This document shows, piece by piece, positions 4,595 to 34,505 of a stretch of 64,000 bases of DNA (its first letter is position 1; the number at the start of each line of letters is the position of its first letter). The stretch lies in assembly GCF_056746865.1 (NCBI RefSeq), contig NZ_CM163382.1; one strand, written 5' to 3'. Below the pieces are notes generated by a model. That model ran no database searches and was not told the origin of the DNA. It worked only from the letters and a program-made list of their open reading frames with translations. The position numbers and the translations under genes are program-made.

Positions 4595-4690
4595 ATGTTT
4601 AAAAAATCGCGTTTTTTCGACATATCCCCAAAACATGTCGATGGCATAAACGTATTCCAACGACATGTTTAAAAATCGCATTTTATCGAC
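4595..4690. repeat. Direct ~32-bp repeats and CGACAT/ATGTCG inverted repeats in a convergent intergenic region
   Basis: GTTTAAAAAATCGCGTTTTTTCGACATATCCC at about 4597 and GTTTAAAAATCGCATTTTATCGACATATCCC at about 4658, with AACATGTCG...CGACATGTT between them. Confidence 0.6.
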
Positions 4691-7154
4691 ATATCCCTGA
4701 CGATTCCTTGCCCGCCAGCGCCTCCACAATCACCATCGCCGCCCGTTCTCCCGCCTTGCCATCCATAAACGCATCGCAATAGTGATGACGAATCTCCTTA
4801 AGCCGCGCCAGCAACGCACCCCAGTCAAACGCCTCTGACAACAAATAACGCAGTTCCGCAACATCATGAGCCACCGGCAATATTTCGCGGATTTGCTGGT
4901 CGGCGCTTTCGGGCGTGGAGTAACTTTTCTCACCGTCGAGCAACGCTGCCATTTCCGGAAAGTCGAGCAGGATTACCCGCTTATCAACGTGGATAGCATC
5001 GAAAATAAAGCCGCTGTTATCGGTCAGCACGTAATCGGCCTTTGCCAGTAGCGCCAGCGTGTGGTGGACGGAGTCGGTGCGCTGTTTTAAGTGCCTGCGC
5101 GCCAGGGCCAGCGATGCAGCTTCTTCCGGGCGCGAGCAGGTGCCGTGGTGCAGTTTGCAAATCAGATTCACATTGCCACTTAAGCGCCCCAATTTTTCTG
5201 CCCAGTGGGGCAGGGAGCTTAATGCGCCAAACGTGGGGGCGTAGAGCACCGTAGGTTTACGGGAATCGGGTTGAATATTTTCTGGCAGAATGCGGTCAAA
5301 CGTGCCGTTATGCCAGGCGTCGAAGCGCGGGTTGCCGACTGCTTTTGCATTGCCGAAATGCGCCAGCGCCCGCTGGCTGTAGTGGCTGTAACACAAAATG
5401 CGTTGATAAAAACGGTTCCAGTCGGCGTGGTTCCACGTCTCTTTGGCTAAGCCATACATGGCGCGAACGTTCACCGCTGCCAGGCCATTGAGCGCGGGCG
5501 TGTGGTAGGGGCTGACCAGGCATTTCACCCGCTGACCGTGTGCCTGCATTTCAGATAAGCGCATTCCTTTGAGCTGCGGATCGTCGATGCTTTTTAGCGT
5601 CTCCAGCATTTCATCCAGAAACGGTTTAAACACGCGGTCGTTGATCACCAGCGTGCAGCCTTGCCCCTGCGCCTGTAGGGCGGTGATGATTGGGCGGTAG
5701 AGCGCGTAATGGAAAGAAGTTTCCATAAAAAAGCCGATGGTGTCGGCGATGGGTAACGCGGATGGCTTTGTGATAGCAGGTAACTTATTGAAATAGTGAG
5801 CAATATTATCAGTCATTTTTTTCTCGATATCGCTAAAGCCTGGTCGCTGATAACTAAGGCTCGGGTAACAGGCCAGCCATTTGTCGGCGCGTAGCAGCGG
5901 CTGCCAGCCGTCTTCCAGCGAATGCTCATCGTTGCTCATCTGCTGCGCCAGTTGCGGGTAGTAGCGGCGGTTCACCAGATAAGCGCATACCTTGCGGCAG
6001 TCCCGCGCGTGCACCAGCCCCGGCAAACTTTTTAGCATCGTTCCCTGCGAAATTTCGCCGCCGAGGATCATCACCTGCCAGGGAATTTTCGCCAGGCTCG
6101 CCAGCAGCGTGTTCAGCACCTGAATATGTTTCTCCTGCTTGAGAATAACCGCGTCATCTTCCAGCAGCAGATAGTTTTGCCAGCCGTGCTGTTGCGCCAG
6201 GCGCAGCGCCTGCAAGTGCGACTGACGTCGTCCCCGTTGGCCGTTTTGATCTTCACTGGCGGCAAGGCGGGTGATCTTCTCAGGTGGAATATGCAGCAAT
6301 GCCAGTTCTTCACGGATCTGTTGTAAGCGATCCGGGCGTTTATCCAGATTCACAACAACTACCTGATCGATCGTCTGATGGTTGATCCCTTGGTGATGAG
6401 TGGCGTTATGTAGACTCAGATAAGCATTGCGCAGCAGCGGATCGCTGACGATATCTGTAAGCGCCGCGTTTACAGGCGTGCTGGCCCCGAGAATAAAGTC
6501 TTTATCAAAGGTGTTGTGGCTGTGCGAGATACACAGAATCGTGCGCTCGCCGGGCAGTTGTAGCGGGTTAACGCTGAAATTGTCGGTGAAACTTTTCTCT
6601 TCGCCTAAATTGCAATCATCGTCGTAACGGTGCTTTTTCAGGTAGTTACGGTGATAGCAAAAGGTGCCGTTGAGGATGTTATGTGGGCCAAAGCTGCGGC
6701 TTTGAAAGATGCGATTGATGTGGCTGTACCAGATGGGGATCTGGTCGGAGCCGGAGATGAGCGCCCGGTGTTTTTGCATCTTGGCGATGGTCCAGGAGAT
6801 TTTATCTGCCGGGTAGTAGTCGTCATCGTCCATGCAGAGGATGTATTCGCCGCGCGCCAGTTCGTTGAGCATATTGCGTTTTTTGCCCAGCGGCAGTTTT
6901 TCCGGGTGATGAATATAGCGGATGTTAAAGGCTTCCGGCGTGCCATTGGTCAGGCGGTCGATGATGTGTTGATGGCTTTGCGGGGAATCGTCGAGGATGA
7001 TGAGTTCGCGGCGGTCTGCCGGGTAGTCCTGATAGCGGTACATATAAAGCAGGTACGGCAGGAATGCGCTGCGGTTCCAGGTTGGCGTGACGACGCTGAT
7101 GAACGGTTTTTCGCGCTGGGTGGCGAGTGTTTTGATAATGGTTGGTGTTGGCAT
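4683..7154 (-). CDS. Multidomain glycosyltransferase: N-terminal GT2-like, central GT25-like, C-terminal CDP-glycerol glycerophosphotransferase (TagB/TagF)-like
   Basis: The ORF track gives 4683..7226, but its first 24 codons translate the repeat element, so the ATG at 7154 (MPTPTIIK) is the probable start. GT2-like motifs: VVTPTWNRS and LCMDDDDYY (DxD). GT25-like segment: VVVNLDKRPDRL...LLEDDAVI. TagF-like C-terminus: ADYVLTDNSGFIFDAIHVDKRVILLD. Confidence 0.8.
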   Translation of the reverse strand: MPTPTIIKTLATQREKPFISVVTPTWNRSAFLPYLLYMYRYQDYPADRRELIILDDSPQSHQHIIDRLTNGTPEAFNIRYIHHPEKLPLGKKRNMLNELARGEYILCMDDDDYYPADKISWTIAKMQKHRALISGSDQIPIWYSHINRIFQSRSFGPHNILNGTFCYHRNYLKKHRYDDDCNLGEEKSFTDNFSVNPLQLPGERTILCISHSHNTFDKDFILGASTPVNAALTDIVSDPLLRNAYLSLHNATHHQGINHQTIDQVVVVNLDKRPDRLQQIREELALLHIPPEKITRLAASEDQNGQRGRRQSHLQALRLAQQHGWQNYLLLEDDAVILKQEKHIQVLNTLLASLAKIPWQVMILGGEISQGTMLKSLPGLVHARDCRKVCAYLVNRRYYPQLAQQMSNDEHSLEDGWQPLLRADKWLACYPSLSYQRPGFSDIEKKMTDNIAHYFNKLPAITKPSALPIADTIGFFMETSFHYALYRPIITALQAQGQGCTLVINDRVFKPFLDEMLETLKSIDDPQLKGMRLSEMQAHGQRVKCLVSPYHTPALNGLAAVNVRAMYGLAKETWNHADWNRFYQRILCYSHYSQRALAHFGNAKAVGNPRFDAWHNGTFDRILPENIQPDSRKPTVLYAPTFGALSSLPHWAEKLGRLSGNVNLICKLHHGTCSRPEEAASLALARRHLKQRTDSVHHTLALLAKADYVLTDNSGFIFDAIHVDKRVILLDFPEMAALLDGEKSYSTPESADQQIREILPVAHDVAELRYLLSEAFDWGALLARLKEIRHHYCDAFMDGKAGERAAMVIVEALAGKESSGICR

Positions 7155-7332: not shown

Positions 7333-8301
7333 TCACGTCAGCAGCGAAAACGCTGAAAGCAGCGGCTCTGCCGCACATAACGACTGAATTTGCTGGCGAA
7401 TCGACGCAGCATTTTCACTCTCTCGCCAGCGTTCAAACACCGCAAAAAGGGCGAAAATATCCTCCTGTCGCAGCGGTGAACCATCCAGCGTCCATAAACT
7501 GATTAACGTGCGGATAAGATAAAAATCGCACACCAGCGGGCAATAATCTGCTCCGTCTGCCTGCCCAATCACCTCATGGTAAACGCGGTAAATCAGCCAG
7601 TTACGCATCATCCAGGGCGCGGTAGCAAAATGCTGTTGCCAGGTGGTTTGCCACTGTGCCTGAAGCTGATGTTGTAACAGGGCTTCGCTGTTGGCGTCAT
7701 GTAGCGCCAGCAAAGGCATCTGCAACGGCAGCGAAGTTTTGCGCGGGCTTTCCGGCAAAATCGACCAGTCAAACGCACAACTGCCGAGCAGCGTCATCAA
7801 CTGGCGCGCCAGTTGTGGCACGGGCGGCAACTGGGCGAACTGTGCCTGTAGCGTGCCTTTTTTCGCATGATCGGCCAGCGCCTGCGGCAGCGTCGTCAAA
7901 CGGGCAAGAATATCTCCGTCTCTGCCCGGCATTTTACTGGCGCGGGAGAGTAAAATCCCGATGGCATACAGGGAAAGCTCTGGGGTTAAATCGGGGAGCG
8001 TGAGGGTACTCAAAATCACCTGGTTTACTATCGCATCGCGCGCGGAAAGCTCTGCGGCATTTTCTTCCACAGGACGGTAGGTGAGCTGTAAATCAAAGGC
8101 CCTGGCATCGTTGAGTACCGCTTCGCAGCTGGCTGGCTCTGTCAGCATCAGGCTCTGGCGAATCTCGTTTTTCCACACCTTGCGGATGTACAAAGGCGAA
8201 TCGGGATATTGCGTCATAAAATTGCGCACGTATTCCGGTTCGTAACATTCAATAAAACTCATAGGTGGCTTCCAGTCTTTATTACTTTGCGGAATATGCA
8301 A
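7333..8301 (-). CDS. Hypothetical protein (322 aa) at the end of the lfgA-lfgM-lfgN gene string
   Basis: Long ORF co-oriented with lfgN and ending just upstream of the glycosyltransferase gene. I recognise no motif. Confidence 0.5.
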   Translation of the reverse strand: MHIPQSNKDWKPPMSFIECYEPEYVRNFMTQYPDSPLYIRKVWKNEIRQSLMLTEPASCEAVLNDARAFDLQLTYRPVEENAAELSARDAIVNQVILSTLTLPDLTPELSLYAIGILLSRASKMPGRDGDILARLTTLPQALADHAKKGTLQAQFAQLPPVPQLARQLMTLLGSCAFDWSILPESPRKTSLPLQMPLLALHDANSEALLQHQLQAQWQTTWQQHFATAPWMMRNWLIYRVYHEVIGQADGADYCPLVCDFYLIRTLISLWTLDGSPLRQEDIFALFAVFERWRESENAASIRQQIQSLCAAEPLLSAFSLLT

Positions 8302-8388: not shown

Positions 8389-8817
8389 TTATTCCTGATA
8401 CAGAAAATCTGCTTCGTTGCCTAAAAACGACTGGATAAATTCATACTGGCGAATCAACAGATCACCGTTTTTGTCGTTGTAGGTTTTGCAGCGTTCCGCT
8501 TTTTGCTCAAGGCGTTGCCACAACTGTTGTGCTGCCGCTTTTTGTACCGCCGGAAGCCAGGCAAACACCTGCGCCAGACCGTCACGATTTACGCTAACAC
8601 CGAGCATTTTCAGCAGGCTATGCCGCTGATGGCTATGTCCATGCAACTGCTCATAGTGATGGGTTATCTCATCGTTTACCGCCAGCAACTCTTCGCTGGC
8701 GCGGCGAATCATGCAGATCCGCTGACGTTGGAGAAGTTCGCGCAGGGAATCATACAGCGCGTCGTCGTCACGAATTCCCTGCAACAACGCCTTCACCTGT
8801 TGTAACCGGATACTCAC
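8389..8817 (-). CDS. lfgN: Flagellar export chaperone FlgN-like
   Basis: 142 aa, helical, in the flgA-flgM-flgN position. Confidence 0.65.
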   Translation of the reverse strand: MSIRLQQVKALLQGIRDDDALYDSLRELLQRQRICMIRRASEELLAVNDEITHHYEQLHGHSHQRHSLLKMLGVSVNRDGLAQVFAWLPAVQKAAAQQLWQRLEQKAERCKTYNDKNGDLLIRQYEFIQSFLGNEADFLYQE

Positions 8818-8829
8818 TTCATCGGCCTC

Positions 8830-9108
8830 TTAGTTCTGGAAAAAACTCAGCATATCGCTGGCTAACTGTTCGGTGTCCACTTGCAGGCTGCCGGAGGCCA
8901 GCATCGCCTGCATTTGCGCCACTTTATCGCTGTCGATATCGCTCTCTTGCTGGTCGTTCAGTGTTTGCTGGGCAGACTGCAATCCCGCCTGGGTAATGTC
9001 GTCGGCGCTTAGCGTCGTGGCGGTGGTCGCCGTGCTTTTGCGCGACTGGCTGGAGCCTGCCGTTGTGGCTGTCGGGCGATTGCCTGGCATAGTCGGGGTG
9101 ATTTTCAT
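8830..9108 (-). CDS. lfgM: Anti-sigma-28 factor FlgM-like
   Basis: 92 aa with a Ser/Thr-rich disordered N-terminus and a conserved FlgM-like C-terminal helix, lying between flgA and flgN homologs. Confidence 0.7.
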   Translation of the reverse strand: MKITPTMPGNRPTATTAGSSQSRKSTATTATTLSADDITQAGLQSAQQTLNDQQESDIDSDKVAQMQAMLASGSLQVDTEQLASDMLSFFQN

Positions 9109-9147
9109 CGCAACCTCGTCTCGGTATTTAGGTGGGTTACTCCAGTA

Positions 9148-9174
9148 AAGCGGTTAACAGGCGGCAAAACTTTA
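9148..9174 (-). promoter_or_regulatory. Candidate sigma-28-type promoter upstream of lfgM
   Basis: The minus strand reads TAAAGTTT-N11-AACCGCTT. The -35 half matches the sigma-28 consensus TAAAGTTT; the -10 half is a weak match to GCCGATAA. Confidence 0.3.
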
Positions 9175-9188
9175 ATCGCCTGCGCAAA

Positions 9189-9926
9189 TTACTCCGCGCT
9201 TACCGTCGTCACCACGCCGCTTTCCGCCACCATCGCGCTGATGACCCGCTGGCTGCTGGCGTTACGCACTTTCACCATCTCGCCTTTGCGACCATTTTTC
9301 AGCGCCACGCCGGGCATCGAGGCGGTGATCCCCGCGCTCTGGTAAACAATCATCACCGGCTGATCGCGTTCGACCAGCACTGGCGAAACCAGCTCTTCTT
9401 TGGTGATGGGCCTGCCCGGTTGCAGCGCGTGTTTACTGCTGAAACCAATCGCGTCATCGGGATCCATCAACACATTGCGGCGCTGGGCGCTGACGTTGTA
9501 GGGCTTCAACTCCACATCATTTGCCGTGAGCGGCGTGTCGCGGGCAACCAGTGACTTCGCCATTACCACCGGCACCAGAACATCCGGGCGCACCGCCACG
9601 TTCATCTGCCAGCTTTGCGGGCAACTGACGGTGAAGTTCATCCGGTTGAGGGTGATTTCCGCAGGCGAAGTGAGCGTGACGCCGGGTGTAGTCGCACAGG
9701 GGGCGGCGGTCGCAATCTGCGAGGGAATATAGACCTTAAAGGTGTAGCGATAGTCATGCCAGCGCCGCTGTTGCGCCAGCGATTCAATTTCCTGGCTCGC
9801 GGCATTTAGCACCTGGGCGTTGACTTGTTCCCGCGCGCTGTGTTGCACGGGGTGGACGGCGGCGTAGCCCGGTAAGGCCAGCACCAGGAGGAAGAACAAC
9901 TTCCGCCTGCAAAATTGAAAACTCAT
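9189..9926 (-). CDS. lfgA: Flagellar P-ring assembly chaperone FlgA
   Basis: 245 aa with a signal peptide (LFFLLVLALPGYAA), divergent from flgB as in canonical flagellar loci. Confidence 0.8.
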   Translation of the reverse strand: MSFQFCRRKLFFLLVLALPGYAAVHPVQHSAREQVNAQVLNAASQEIESLAQQRRWHDYRYTFKVYIPSQIATAAPCATTPGVTLTSPAEITLNRMNFTVSCPQSWQMNVAVRPDVLVPVVMAKSLVARDTPLTANDVELKPYNVSAQRRNVLMDPDDAIGFSSKHALQPGRPITKEELVSPVLVERDQPVMIVYQSAGITASMPGVALKNGRKGEMVKVRNASSQRVISAMVAESGVVTTVSAE

Positions 9927-9955
9927 AAACCCTTTCTCATCAGTGACTTAAAAAA

Positions 9956-9970
9956 TGGCACGGCGATTGC
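9956..9970 (+). promoter_or_regulatory. Candidate sigma-54 (-24/-12) promoter for the lfgB-lfgL operon
   Basis: TGGCAC-ggcga-TTGC with exactly 10 nt between GG and GC, about 38 nt upstream of the lfgB ATG. Confidence 0.6.
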
Positions 9971-10007
9971 TTAGCGTATGCGGATTGAAGCAGGAGTGAC
10001 GCAGGAA

Positions 10008-16837: not shown

Positions 16838-16925
16838 GTGCCTGATGCGACGCTGGCGCGTCTTATCAGGCCTACGAGTCGCCCGTATGTAGGCCGGATA
16901 AGGCGTTCACGCCGCATCCGGCACC
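16838..16925. repeat. REP/BIME palindromic units
   Basis: GCCTGATGCGACGC...CTTATCAGGCCTAC and GTAGGCCGGATAAGGCGTTCACGCCGCATCCGGCA in the flgJ-flgK intergenic region. Confidence 0.85.
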
Positions 16926-16998
16926 CGGTTTACGGAACTTAAGAATCCCCAACCTAACGCCGCTTTTAACCGGCACGATTTACCGGTAAGGATCCAAC

Positions 16999-20385: not shown

Positions 20386-20730
20386 ATGATGTGGGACGTC
20401 GAGACAACGGAGACTTTCGACAACTGGTTTGATGCCCAGACTGTTGCGCTGAAAGAAGATTTACTTGCTGCAATGCTGATTCTTGCTGAGTATGGCCCAC
20501 AGTTGGGCAGACCCTTTGCGGATACGGTTAATGATTCACAGTTTTCAAATATGAAAGAATTACGCGTCCAACATCAGGGAAACCCGGTACGTGCTTTTTT
20601 TGCTTTCGATCCTGCGCGCCGTGGCATTGTATTATGTGCGGGTGATAAAACGGGGTTAAATGAGAAAAAGTTTTATCGCGATATGATCAAGCTCGCTGAT
20701 TCTGAATACCGTAAGCATCTGAAAAAGTAA
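20386..20730 (+). CDS. Type II toxin, RelE/ParE superfamily (HigB-like 'addiction module killer' family)
   Basis: 114 aa with a C-terminal GIVLCAGDK...KKFYRDMIKLAD region reminiscent of HigB-like killer proteins. It lies 9 nt upstream of a small HTH gene, and the toxin-first order is typical of higBA. Confidence 0.7.
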   Translation: MMWDVETTETFDNWFDAQTVALKEDLLAAMLILAEYGPQLGRPFADTVNDSQFSNMKELRVQHQGNPVRAFFAFDPARRGIVLCAGDKTGLNEKKFYRDMIKLADSEYRKHLKK

Positions 20731-20739
20731 GGAACGATA

Positions 20740-21039
20740 ATGGCTACTCTAAAAGAACTGATGGCAAAGCAAAGCCCTGAAAGCCAGGTGCGTATTGCGG
20801 CAAAAGTTGAGGAAATGCGCCAGACCATCGCCTTGCATCAGCTGAGAGAAGAACTCAATATTTCGCAAACGGAAATGGCGGCAGCGATGGGCATTAAGCA
20901 ACCGACTCTTGCAAAAATGGAGCAGGCAGATAACGATCCTCGGTTGTCTACGCTAAAACGCTATGTTGCGGCTTTAGGTGGGGAATTGAGTATCGACGTT
21001 AAACTGCCGAATGGTAAGAGAATTGCATTTCAGATTTAA
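20740..21039 (+). CDS. Type II antitoxin, XRE/HigA-family helix-turn-helix protein
   Basis: 99 aa with an HTH motif (ISQTEMAAAMGIKQPTLAKME), tightly coupled to the upstream toxin gene. Confidence 0.75.
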   Translation: MATLKELMAKQSPESQVRIAAKVEEMRQTIALHQLREELNISQTEMAAAMGIKQPTLAKMEQADNDPRLSTLKRYVAALGGELSIDVKLPNGKRIAFQI

Positions 21040-21096: not shown

Positions 21097-21990
21097 TCAG
21101 CATTTCTGCACAGTATTTAACAACTTCTCTAAATTCTGATACATCGCGCTATTAATATCGCTATTCTGCCAGCTATCCACATTAAAAGTTAATTGCCAGC
21201 TACCGTTGCACTGGTTGCGCAGAACAATATCACTCTCCAGTCGGTTACGAACATATTTATAATAGGTTGTCATTGTCATATTATGCGCTGACAATAAATT
21301 ATCGAGTTTGTCTTTTCCTGGTGCGAGGGTTTGTGACAGTAACGGTACGGAATTATTTTCCTTTCCAGAACTAAGATGAAATATTTTTATTCTTGGACTG
21401 TTAATTGACTCTTTTACCAGTTGCGGGGCGTCAGGTGTACTTTTCAAGTGTGAATACCCCACGGTTGAGCCAACCAATATAACAGCTGCGGCCAACGCTA
21501 ACCCCATCAGTCCTTTATGTTTTTTTCTAACAGGCACATACGGTGTTGTCGAAGATATCTCTTCTGGGGCTGTATCCTGTATCTGGTCGGTAATAATCAG
21601 CGCTTCTGCAGGCGATGACTCCGGCAAAGACACATACTCTTTATTGCATAAGTAACCTTTCTTCGGAATTGTTTTAATAATGTTCTGTTGTTTGCCATCA
21701 TCGTCGATAGCAACGCGCAACGCATGGATCGCCGTCGGCAGGCTGTTTCCGCCGACAATACGGTTCTTCCATACTTCGGCACATAAATAAGATCGCGATA
21801 AAACCACATCGGCATTTTTTGCTAATGTTTCCAGCAAAATAAAATGGTATTCGCCGAGACGACGTGTTTCACCCGTTTCGCAATGTATTAAGGCATTAAG
21901 CGACGGGTCCATCCGCCAGTTGTTGATAATAATACTCATAGTTGAGTTTACCTTAGCAAGGGATAAATGTTTCCTGATAGTGCTTTGCAT
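21097..21990 (-). CDS. lafZ: Membrane-anchored ToxR/CadC-like transcriptional regulator (position of lafZ)
   Basis: 297 aa with an N-terminal winged-helix OmpR/CadC-type DNA-binding region, a single TM helix (GLMGLALAAAVILVGSTVGY) and a periplasmic C-terminal domain. The gene is AT-rich relative to its flanks. Confidence 0.6.
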   Translation of the reverse strand: MQSTIRKHLSLAKVNSTMSIIINNWRMDPSLNALIHCETGETRRLGEYHFILLETLAKNADVVLSRSYLCAEVWKNRIVGGNSLPTAIHALRVAIDDDGKQQNIIKTIPKKGYLCNKEYVSLPESSPAEALIITDQIQDTAPEEISSTTPYVPVRKKHKGLMGLALAAAVILVGSTVGYSHLKSTPDAPQLVKESINSPRIKIFHLSSGKENNSVPLLSQTLAPGKDKLDNLLSAHNMTMTTYYKYVRNRLESDIVLRNQCNGSWQLTFNVDSWQNSDINSAMYQNLEKLLNTVQKC

Positions 21991-22424
21991 AAAGCACAGT
22001 CTTATACGTCCCTGAGAAGATGATTTTTCTGCGTGATAATTAATATTTTATGGTGATAAGATTATTCTTAATCACTATATAGCGTGGAAATGTAACGAAA
22101 TGACAGGACAGGTACAATAGCCAAATGTGTACTATTTGCAACGCAATGTAAATTTTGGCATCAGTACATTGAGAACAAAACGCGATAATTGATGACAATC
22201 TTAACTATATCAAGCGTTTGATAAAGACATATTTTGATACCTGGCCATGTGGCAGATATTGCTAATAATCTTTTTATCTGAATTTAAACTCTGCTTTTTT
22301 TAGCTAAAAGTGGCATCGGATAATACGTGGCGAAAAAATTTTAACGGCGATTTTAAGTTTGCTCCTGAGGTGTCGTTTTTACAGGGTATCGAAACGAAAA
22401 CGATTAATCCCAAGGAGCAGTATC

Positions 22425-23339: not shown

Positions 23340-23344
23340 TGGCG

Positions 23345-23380
23345 GACTTGCCGATGCGGCGTAAACGCCTTATCCGGCCA
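23345..23380. repeat. REP unit downstream of lafA
   Basis: GCCGATGCGGCGTAAACGCCTTATCCGGCC. Confidence 0.7.
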
Positions 23381-23385
23381 CGAAC

Positions 23386-23414
23386 AACACCGCCTGCGGG
23401 CGGTGTTGTGCTTT
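23386..23414 (+). terminator. Rho-independent terminator candidate after lafA
   Basis: Hairpin AACACCGCCTGCGGGCGGTGTT followed by a T-rich run (GTGCTTT). Confidence 0.6.
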
Positions 23415-23496: not shown

Positions 23497-23511
23497 TGGC
23501 ACGCCTTTTGC
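23497..23511 (+). promoter_or_regulatory. Candidate sigma-54 (-24/-12) promoter for lafB through lafU
   Basis: TGGCAC-gcctt-TTGC with canonical spacing, about 33 nt upstream of the lafB ATG. Confidence 0.6.
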
Positions 23512-27140: not shown

Positions 27141-27857
27141 ATGCTACAGGACGTATTCGAGTCAGAAGAATTTGCTGCCGCGCCGGTATTAACCCCGCAG
27201 CAGGAGAGCCACTACTTGCAGGCCTATCTACCGTTGGTGCGTAAAGTGGTGCGGCAACTTGCTCCGCAGTGTAATTGCATTATTGACCGTCAGGATATGG
27301 AACAAACGGCGTTAATGGGGCTGCTTAATGCCATTCGTCGCTATGGGCTGCCGGACGAAGGTTTTGCGGGCTATGCCGTGCACCGGATTCGCGGCGCGAT
27401 CCTGGATGAGCTGCGCGCTCTCGACTGGCGACCGCGCCAGCTGCGACAGAAATATCATCAGATGAAAGATCTGATTCGTGAGACGCGCAAAAAACTGGGG
27501 CACGAACCGGAGTGGTCAGAACTGGCCGTGGAAGGGATTTCGCATGAAGATTATCTCGAATATCAGCAACTGGAAGGGGCGGAAACGCTCGCCAGCCTTG
27601 ACGAACTGCTGAACGGTGAAGGGCCAGGCATTCCACTTGCTGGCAGGGAACTGGAAGATCAGTTTGTTACCCAGCAAATGCTGCAATACGCGCTTTCACA
27701 ATTAAGCGAAAAAGAGCAACTGATCCTCTCCATGTATTACCAGCATGAGATGAATCTCAAAGAGATTGCGCTGGTATTAGGGCTAACCGAAGCCCGAATT
27801 TGTCAACTGAATAAACAGATCGCGCAGAAAATTCGTGATTTTGTCTATCCGAATTAA
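27141..27857 (+). CDS. lafS: Flagellar sigma factor (FliA/sigma-28 family)
   Basis: 238 aa with a sigma-70 region-2-like segment and a C-terminal region-4 HTH (LKEIALVLGLTEARICQLNKQ). Confidence 0.85.
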   Translation: MLQDVFESEEFAAAPVLTPQQESHYLQAYLPLVRKVVRQLAPQCNCIIDRQDMEQTALMGLLNAIRRYGLPDEGFAGYAVHRIRGAILDELRALDWRPRQLRQKYHQMKDLIRETRKKLGHEPEWSELAVEGISHEDYLEYQQLEGAETLASLDELLNGEGPGIPLAGRELEDQFVTQQMLQYALSQLSEKEQLILSMYYQHEMNLKEIALVLGLTEARICQLNKQIAQKIRDFVYPN

Positions 27858-29729: not shown

Positions 29730-30785
29730 ATGCGTAAAATCATTCATGTGGATATGGACTGCTTTTTCGCAGCGGTGGAGATGCGCGACAATCCTGCCCT
29801 GCGCGATATCCCTATTGCTATTGGCGGCAGCCGCGAACGTCGGGGGGTGATCAGCACCGCCAATTATCCCGCGCGTAAATTTGGCGTACGTAGCGCTATG
29901 CCGACAGGGATGGCGCTCAAATTTTGCCCACATCTCACGCTGCTTCCAGGGCGCTTTGACGCCTACAAAGAAGCCTCAAATCATATCCGCGAAATTTTCT
30001 CGCGCTATACCTCGCGCATTGAACCGTTATCACTGGATGAAGCCTATCTCGACGTCACCGATAGTGTGCATTGCCACGGTTCTGCGACCCTCATCGCCCA
30101 GGAAATCCGCCAGACAATCTTCAACGAGCTGCAACTGACGGCGTCTGCGGGCGTTGCGCCGGTAAAGTTTCTCGCTAAAATCGCTTCCGACATGAATAAA
30201 CCCAACGGTCAGTTTGTGATTACTCCGGCAGAAGTTCCGGCATTTCTGCAAACCTTACCGCTGGCAAAAATTCCTGGCGTCGGCAAAGTCTCGGCGGCAA
30301 AACTGGAAGCGATGGGGCTGCGGACCTGCGGTGATGTGCAAAAGTGTGATCTGGTGACTCTGCTCAAACGTTTTGGCAAATTTGGCCGCATTTTGTGGGA
30401 GCGTAGTCAGGGGATTGACGAGCGCGACGTTAACAGCGAACGGTTGCGAAAATCCGTCGGCGTGGAACGCACGATGGCGGAAGATATTCATCACTGGTCT
30501 GAATGTGAAGCGATTATCGAGCGGCTGTACCCGGAACTTGAACGCCGTCTGGCAAAGGTAAAACCTGATTTACTGATTGCCCGTCAGGGAGTGAAATTAA
30601 AGTTCGACGATTTCCAGCAAACCACTCAGGAGCACGTCTGGCCACGGCTGAATAAAGCTGATCTAATCGCCACCGCGCGTAAAACCTGGGATGAACGCCG
30701 CGGCGGGCGCGGTGTGCGACTGGTGGGGCTGCATGTGACGTTGCTTGACCCTCAAATGGAAAGACAACTGGTGCTGGGATTATGA
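29730..30785 (+). CDS. dinB: DNA polymerase IV (Y-family translesion polymerase)
   Basis: 351 aa with the Y-family N-terminus [26 protein letters not shown]. Confidence 0.95.
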
Positions 30786-33995: not shown

Positions 33996-34505
33996 ATGTT
34001 TATCGGTCATCTTCCGGCTGGTTATTTAATAACTTGTACTTTAATGAAACGCTTGCCACTGATTGCTCGTCATGCGCGCTGGGCGATGGTTATTGGCTTA
34101 CTTGGGGCCGTTGCGCCCGATTTTGATCTTTTTTGGTGCTATCTGGTTGATAACGGGCAACGACATCATCATCTTTACCCGTCTCATTGGCCATTATTAT
34201 GGTTTGCTCTGCTGGCGGCGACATTAGTCTGGGCAGGAATTGCGAAGAATAAACTTCCGGCGTGGCTGGGCGTGGTGTTTTGCCTGAATAGTATCGCGCA
34301 TTTATTACTCGATACGCTGGTCGGTGATATCTGGTGGCTGATGCCTTTCGTTAACCAACCGTTTGCATTCTTTCATATTACGGCGGTACATCATCCGTGG
34401 TGGCTCAATTTTTTATTACACTGGTCGTTTTTACTGGAACTGGCATTAGTGGTTGCCGCCATTGCCATGTGGTGCAGGCGTAATGCCAAAATGGTAAATG
34501 CATGA
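33996..34505 (+). CDS. Inner-membrane protein, YdjM/DUF457-like membrane-bound hydrolase family
   Basis: About 169 aa from MFIGHLPAGYLI, with several TM helices and His-rich motifs. The ORF track's upstream extension is probably spurious. Confidence 0.5.
   Translation: MFIGHLPAGYLITCTLMKRLPLIARHARWAMVIGLLGAVAPDFDLFWCYLVDNGQRHHHLYPSHWPLLWFALLAATLVWAGIAKNKLPAWLGVVFCLNSIAHLLLDTLVGDIWWLMPFVNQPFAFFHITAVHHPWWLNFLLHWSFLLELALVVAAIAMWCRRNAKMVNA

Follow-up and report, generated by a model that had tools for sequence, protein, structure and literature searches.

The window, a stretch of 64,000 nucleotides, comes from an E. coli chromosome, shows 100% identity to strain 118UI and contains an intact flagellar locus of the Flag-2 (lateral) type. 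In E. coli this locus is frequently degenerate; strain 042, for instance, has a frameshift in lfgC. On the minus strand, lfgA is followed by lfgM, which encodes the anti-sigma-28 factor, and by the chaperone gene lfgN, which starts 12 nt past lfgM and is presumably co-transcribed with it; lfgB and the genes behind it run divergently from lfgA, and the sigma-28-type factor gene lafS lies further along the locus (Table 1). The naming of lfgM in the initial annotation is borne out by a Pfam FlgM match, and the product of lafS contains sigma-70 regions 2 and 4. A RelE/ParE toxin gene and an HTH antitoxin gene are located at 20389–21039, between lafW and the lafZ-like gene, a site corresponding to variable region 2 of flag-2 loci (PMC6993521).

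The element studied here sits in the intergenic gap of 80 bp that separates the stop codon of lfgA from the start codon of lfgM, where the minus strand reads, in order, taa (lfgA stop)-tttgcgcaggcgat-TAAAGTTT-tgccgcctgtt-AACCGCTT-tactggagtaacccacctaaataccgagacGAGGttgcg-ATG. It ends 39 nt before the ATG, in agreement with the roughly 40 nt given originally.

Table 1 Genes of the Flag-2 locus, parts of the candidate lfgM promoter and its sister promoters in the window
Feature	Position	Strand	Sequence or signal	Basis and remarks
lfgN, chaperone gene	8389–8817	-		Pfam FlgN, E 2.6e-19
lfgM, anti-sigma-28 factor gene	8830–9108	-	ATG 9108–9106	RefSeq annotation; Pfam FlgM PF04316, E 9.6e-10
Shine-Dalgarno of lfgM	9114–9117	-	GAGG	Block ACGAGGTTG conserved in the 19-locus alignment
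Predicted transcription start zone	9137–9141	-		Leader ~30 nt; from the usual sigma-28 -10-to-start distance
-10 element of lfgM	9146–9154	-	ACCGCTTTA	Core CCGCTTT
Spacer	9155–9165	-		Sequence unconserved, length kept; 11 nt, 9166–9156, in the register of the initial annotation
-35 element of lfgM	9166–9175	-	TTAAAGTTTT	Core TAAAGTTT at 9174–9167
lfgM site, shifted by one base	9174–9147	-	TAAAGTTT-N12-ACCGCTTT	Same two-box type as the sister promoters
lfgA	9189–9926	-	Stop at 9191–9189	RefSeq annotation; upstream neighbour of lfgM
lfgB and following genes	from 10008	+		Divergent from lfgA
lfgK sister promoter	16939–16966	+	TTAAGAAT-N12-GCCGCTTT	Conserved in all flag-2 loci examined
lfgK	from 16999			Candidate late gene
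lafZ-like regulator gene	21097–21939	-
lafA sister promoter	22353–22379	+	TTAAGTTT-N11-GTCGTTTT	Conserved wherever a lafA homologue was found
lafA, lateral flagellin gene	from 22425			Candidate late gene
lafB	from 23544			Perfect sigma-54 promoter at 23497–23511
lafS, sigma-28-type factor gene	27141–27857	+		Annotated FliA/WhiG family; Pfam Sigma70_r2 and Sigma70_r4

The element against the canonical FliA consensus

A sigma-28-type promoter had been proposed in this gap on the basis of TAAAGTTT as the -35 box, followed on the minus strand after 11 nt by AACCGCTT (9155–9148) as the -10 box, and both sequences and coordinates proved exact. The -35 box was rightly called perfect, matching the canonical FliA -35 at 8/8 positions. 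Taken alone, TAAAGTTT nevertheless occurs at chance rate, with two copies in the 64-kb window versus 1.54 expected; the second copy, at 30163, lies inside dinB and was set aside as a chance occurrence.

The downstream box fits the canonical consensus poorly. Compared with GCCGATAA, it agrees at 1/8 positions in the N11 register and at 4/8 when moved to N12 (ACCGCTTT, 9154–9147), and the A that follows CG in the canonical CGA core is absent. Since scanning the whole window for TAAAGTTT-N11-GCCGATAA with up to three mismatches returned no match, the canonical model cannot validate the lfgM site. The lfgM element exceeds chance only through its conservation and through a motif that it has in common with other late promoters, both described below.

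Conservation and the motif shared with lfgK and lafA

Scanning one genome per species for LfgI yielded 74 loci, among them ~28 enterobacterial flag-2 loci spanning the genera Escherichia, Pseudocitrobacter, Citrobacter, Phytobacter, Enterobacter, Leminorella, Rahnella, Rosenbergiella and Tatumella. In a MAFFT alignment of the regions upstream of lfgM from 19 flag-2 loci (LfgM identity 31–97%), the mean column identity was 42% and the only invariant intergenic columns were T9174, A9172, A9171, T9168, C9152 and G9151. These six positions make up the T.AA..T skeleton of the -35 box and the CG within the -10 box. T9169 and T9166 were conserved in at least 90% of these loci, and the spacer and flanks drifted. 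The orthologous sites follow the form T(T/A)AAGTTTT-N-GYCGCTTT(T)A. The alignment also showed that the -10 box had been placed out of register: the conserved core is CCGCTTTA (9153–9146), 1–2 nt downstream of the box first proposed. In the corrected register, 12 nt (9166–9155) separate the 8-mers TAAAGTTT and ACCGCTTT, and the CG begins 18 nt after the G of AAG.

Across the ~28 enterobacterial loci, lfgK and lafA have the same pair of boxes upstream, so that a LafS consensus could indeed be derived from the late promoters, as the initial annotation had suggested. The shared form is T(T/A)AAG(W)(W)T followed by GYCGYTTT, the CG beginning 17–18 nt after the G of AAG, and the lfgM -10 is identical to that of lfgK in its CCGCTTT core and spacing. 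The -10 box of lfgM is thus weak, as originally judged, only when held against GCCGATAA; against the LafS-type GYCGYTTT that judgement does not hold. Spacer lengths vary little: lfgK has N12 in all loci, lfgM has N12 in all but two (L013 and L030, 1 nt shorter), and lafA has N11 in the window (22361–22371) and in L003, L004, L006 and L021, and N12 in Pseudocitrobacter (L002, L005), Citrobacter and other genera. At two positions that are otherwise near-invariant in the LafS consensus, the lfgM site of the window deviates, with TAAAG for TTAAG and ACCG for GYCG, and these two departures suggest that its promoter would be weaker than those of lafA and lfgK.

In the 64-kb window, the pattern TWAAGWWT-N13/14-CGYTTT has four matches versus 0.01 expected, a figure that is no test, the pattern having been drawn up post hoc. 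The fourth match, TTAAGATT...CGCGTTTT at 22204–22177 on the minus strand, faces the lafZ-like gene; it is unconserved elsewhere, scores low, and was rejected as a likely chance product of an AT-rich intergenic region. For a scoring independent of Escherichia, we built a position weight matrix from the lafA, lfgK and lfgM sites of 21 non-Escherichia loci (61 distinct sites), in which the gap between the two blocks is 9, rarely 8. The top scores in the window were those of lafA (24.5), lfgK (23.9), an unrelated site (23.5) and lfgM (20.1), the next being 15.2. A score of at least 20.1 arises anywhere in a shuffled 64-kb window with a probability of 0.034, and ~2e-5 such sites are expected on this strand of the 80-nt gap. 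With a matrix built from the lafA and lfgK sites of other species only, lafA scored 27.9, lfgK 27.1 and lfgM 13.2, the last ranking seventh and falling inside the shuffle noise (mean maximum 14.6). This stricter matrix is too strict for lfgM because TAAAG and ACCG are absent from both orthologue groups.

One alternative is a chance resemblance without function. It would be in keeping with the chance-level frequency of TAAAGTTT, the poor -10 relative to the FliA consensus and the noise-level score under the lafA/lfgK-only matrix. Against it, across loci whose LfgM proteins share only 31–70% identity, the box positions alone are invariant and the spacer and flanks diverge, and the lateral system of Vibrio shows the same (see below). 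We regard chance as highly improbable.

The lfgA–lfgM promoter region was found in 1278/5426 complete E. coli genomes. Both boxes are identical to those of the window in E. coli 042, ZH063 and GSH8M-2, in which neighbouring bases differ, and the boxes are kept in 4/5 of the E. coli alleles sampled. The remaining one, strain 21EVA (L080), has CTG in place of CCG at the otherwise invariant C9152, making this C-to-T change a candidate promoter-down allele. About 16 genomes fall into the lowest identity class for the 50-nt promoter region.

Several observations were made alongside. The unrelated high-scoring site, CTCAATTTTT-N8-TGGTCGTTTTT at 34404–34432 (+), reaches 22.5–23.5 with LafS-type matrices, above lfgM, and lies outside Flag-2, within the 3'-terminal part of a gene for a metal-dependent hydrolase, where the next genes up to pepD are on the minus strand; its -35 lacks TTAAG and no co-oriented gene follows, and it is probably a chance match. 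Directly upstream of the lafA -35, at ~22330–22350, there is an A-tract/T-tract (aaaaaattttt) kept across Citrobacter, Escherichia and other loci, which resembles an UP element and may be a source of strong flagellin expression. REP/BIME-like palindromic repeats (…gcctgatgcgacgc…tgtaggccggataaggcg…) are located at 16840–16925, between lfgJ and the lfgK promoter, and at 23340–23390, after lafA; they are present in the Escherichia loci and absent at the same place in Citrobacter.

Read-through from lfgA and the other promoters of the locus

No terminator-like structure was found on the minus strand of the lfgA–lfgM gap, the only minus-strand hairpin in the scan being a weak one of five pairs at 8860–8848, inside the 3' end of lfgM. 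Without a terminator between the two genes, a combination of read-through and an internal late promoter is plausible, as in Salmonella flgAMN/flgMN, where lfgM's counterpart is served both by read-through from flgA and by an internal late promoter.

A second alternative is that lfgM is transcribed only from the promoter of an lfgA-lfgM-lfgN operon, the two boxes serving some other purpose, such as binding a regulator or acting within the mRNA. Such an arrangement would suit the terminator-free gap of only 80 bp, and in Aeromonas hydrophila the flgAMN_L cluster is reportedly a single class I, sigma-70-dependent unit, hierarchies differing between lateral systems. It accounts less readily for two boxes at fixed spacing around a freely varying spacer, and for boxes of the same type before lafA and lfgK, which lack a comparable co-oriented operon partner upstream. 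Searching the gap against Rfam gave no match at E up to 1, and with neither such a match nor a terminator-like hairpin an RNA element was dismissed. Flag-1, moreover, has a class-3 promoter at the equivalent place and uses it alongside read-through, so the two modes are not mutually exclusive. Transcription from the operon promoter alone therefore appears quite unlikely, and some lfgM transcript probably comes from lfgA read-through in addition to that from an internal promoter.

As for other promoter classes, neither a sigma-54 site (up to two mismatches) nor a sigma-70-like site for lfgA was found on the minus strand of 9927–10007, and a sigma-54 promoter for lfgM was discarded, there being no minus-strand site upstream. 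Perfect sigma-54 sites of the form TGGCAC-N5-TTGC occur on the plus strand at 9956–9970, facing lfgB, and at 23497–23511 (TGGCACgccttTTGC), before lafB. A further site with one mismatch, CGGCACgcttaTTGC (8312–8298, minus strand), lies just past lfgN and faces a hypothetical gene (7333–8262) and a large glycosyltransferase gene (4683–7154) in variable region 1, which suggests that the cargo genes of this region, possibly for glycosylation, may be wired into the LafK/sigma-54 class.

The reader of the motif and comparison with known systems

Among wider relatives, the motif was found with sigma factors of the LafS type. In the Vibrio lateral system, represented by chromosome 2 of Vibrio campbellii, LafS is 40% identical, and flgM_L, flgK_L and lafA, the same three genes as in the window, are each preceded by TTAAT and then CGCCT, the CG beginning 18 nt past the last T of TTAAT. 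In Betaproteobacteria, loci whose sigma factors resemble LafS (47–51% identity) have TTTAAG...GGTCGCC before flgK, and the canonical CTAAAG-N15-GCCGATAA is found at L046, a locus further removed. As the motif stands before the same three units in Enterobacterales and Vibrio, and before flgK in Betaproteobacteria, it tracks the LafS lineage.

Late genes under the control of FliA_L/LafS belong to the lateral flagellar systems of Vibrio parahaemolyticus, Aeromonas hydrophila and Plesiomonas shigelloides. In P. shigelloides, RNA-seq of a fliA_L deletion identified flgMN_L, flgKL_L and fliC_L as dependent on the lateral sigma-28 (PMC11242183), and these are the same three units that carry the motif in the window (lfgMN, lfgKL and lafA). 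The two systems differ in the fliD...fliA_L-lafTU cluster, which is FliA_L-dependent in P. shigelloides (PMC11242183), whereas lafB (fliD) in the window has a perfect sigma-54 promoter instead.

The promoter might be real and yet be read mainly by the flag-1 factor FliA, in which case the two flagellar systems would be cross-wired and LafS would not regulate its own inhibitor. The -35 TAAAGTTT is, after all, the perfect FliA consensus, TAAAG stands at lfgM in E. coli and several Citrobacter where lafA and lfgK have TTAAG, and LafS and E. coli FliA are homologous, with 36.6% identity. The -10, however, lacks the CGATAA core and is of the lafA/lfgK type, and the canonical consensus scan gave no match. 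In addition, Tatumella ptyseos ATCC 33301 (L027) and Leminorella grimontii ATCC 33999 (L023) have no flag-1 (PMC6993521) and both keep the two-box lfgM motif, so that LafS is the presumed reader there. Reading mainly by FliA is, in our view, unlikely.

We consider it very probable, judging from sequence comparisons, that the element is a class-3 promoter, P_lfgM, read by LafS-RNA polymerase and placing lfgMN under negative feedback. The sigma-28-type reading first proposed was favoured by every computational test, namely the conservation footprint, the shared motif and the position equivalent to that in K-12. In the mechanism that we infer, the LafS holoenzyme would bind the -35 TAAAGTTT (9174–9167) and, across a 12-nt spacer, the -10 ACCGCTTTA (9154–9146), and transcription would start near 9140 to give an lfgM-lfgN mRNA with a leader of ~30 nt. 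Free LafS would lead to more of its inhibitor LfgM, which would hold LafS inactive until the finished Flag-2 hook-basal body exports LfgM, as with FlgM and FliA; the loop would damp late-gene expression and replenish LfgM.

More tentatively, and as a possibility to which we give less than even weight, LafS-clade sigma-28 factors may use a promoter dialect of their own that insulates the secondary system from the FliA regulon, with the E. coli lfgM promoter perhaps a deliberate hybrid. The dialect would pair TTAA(G/T) with a downstream GYCGY(C/T)T whose CG mostly begins 18 nt after the G/T of the -35, the spacer thus usually exceeding that of FliA by 1 nt, and would lack the CGATAA core found in sigma-28 promoters elsewhere. 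Insulation would apply in bacteria that carry both a Flag-2/lateral and a primary flagellar system, and a hybrid lfgM promoter, combining the FliA-perfect TAAAGTTT with a LafS-type -10, would let one system sense the other. Neither a LafS consensus nor a description of such a -10 box turned up in the literature accessible to us, which did not extend to the primary Vibrio and Aeromonas work, and De Maayer 2020 contains no promoter analysis.

The candidate promoter would complete the wiring of E. coli Flag-2, with sigma-54 driving the lfgB and lafB operons and LafS-type promoters driving lfgMN, lfgKL and lafA, in a system whose expression is poorly understood even though the lfgA–lfgM promoter region is present in roughly one in four complete E. 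coli genomes. The analysis supplies bases to mutate (C9152, G9151, A9172 and A9171) and a LafS promoter model usable for finding regulon members. In its -10 the LafS lineage apparently departs from the universal sigma-28 consensus, a point relevant to how two flagellar systems can exist side by side without activating each other.

The lfgM promoter is what the well-known flgM design would lead one to expect in a homologous system. That FliA transcribes the gene of its own anti-sigma factor, FlgM, is established, and because the feedback loop follows this textbook FliA/FlgM design the biological surprise is small. In flag-1 of E. coli K-12, TAAAGATT-N11-GCCGATAA comes immediately behind the stop codon of flgA and ~45 nt ahead of flgM. 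P_flgM of E. coli and Salmonella and the lfgM element are alike in lying directly after the flgA/lfgA stop and ~40–45 nt before the anti-sigma gene, in their TAAAG-type -35, in the downstream order flgM, flgN, and in a logic by which the sigma factor transcribes its own anti-sigma factor. They differ in the -10 and spacer (ACCGCTTTA and 12 nt at lfgM versus GCCGATAA and 11 nt at P_flgM), in the presumed reader (LafS versus FliA) and in the tier above, the class-2 promoters of Flag-2 being of the sigma-54 type and those of flag-1 of the FlhDC/sigma-70 type. With the canonical sigma-28 (FliA/SigD/WhiG) promoter TAAAGTTT-N11-GCCGATAA, the lfgM element shares the two-box layout, a nearly identical -35 and a G-C-G skeleton (GYCG) at nearly the same distance. 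In contrast, where canonical sigma-28 promoters have ATAA in the second half of the -10, all LafS-clade promoters examined (Enterobacterales, Vibrio and Betaproteobacteria) have YTTT(T)A and lack the CGA core.
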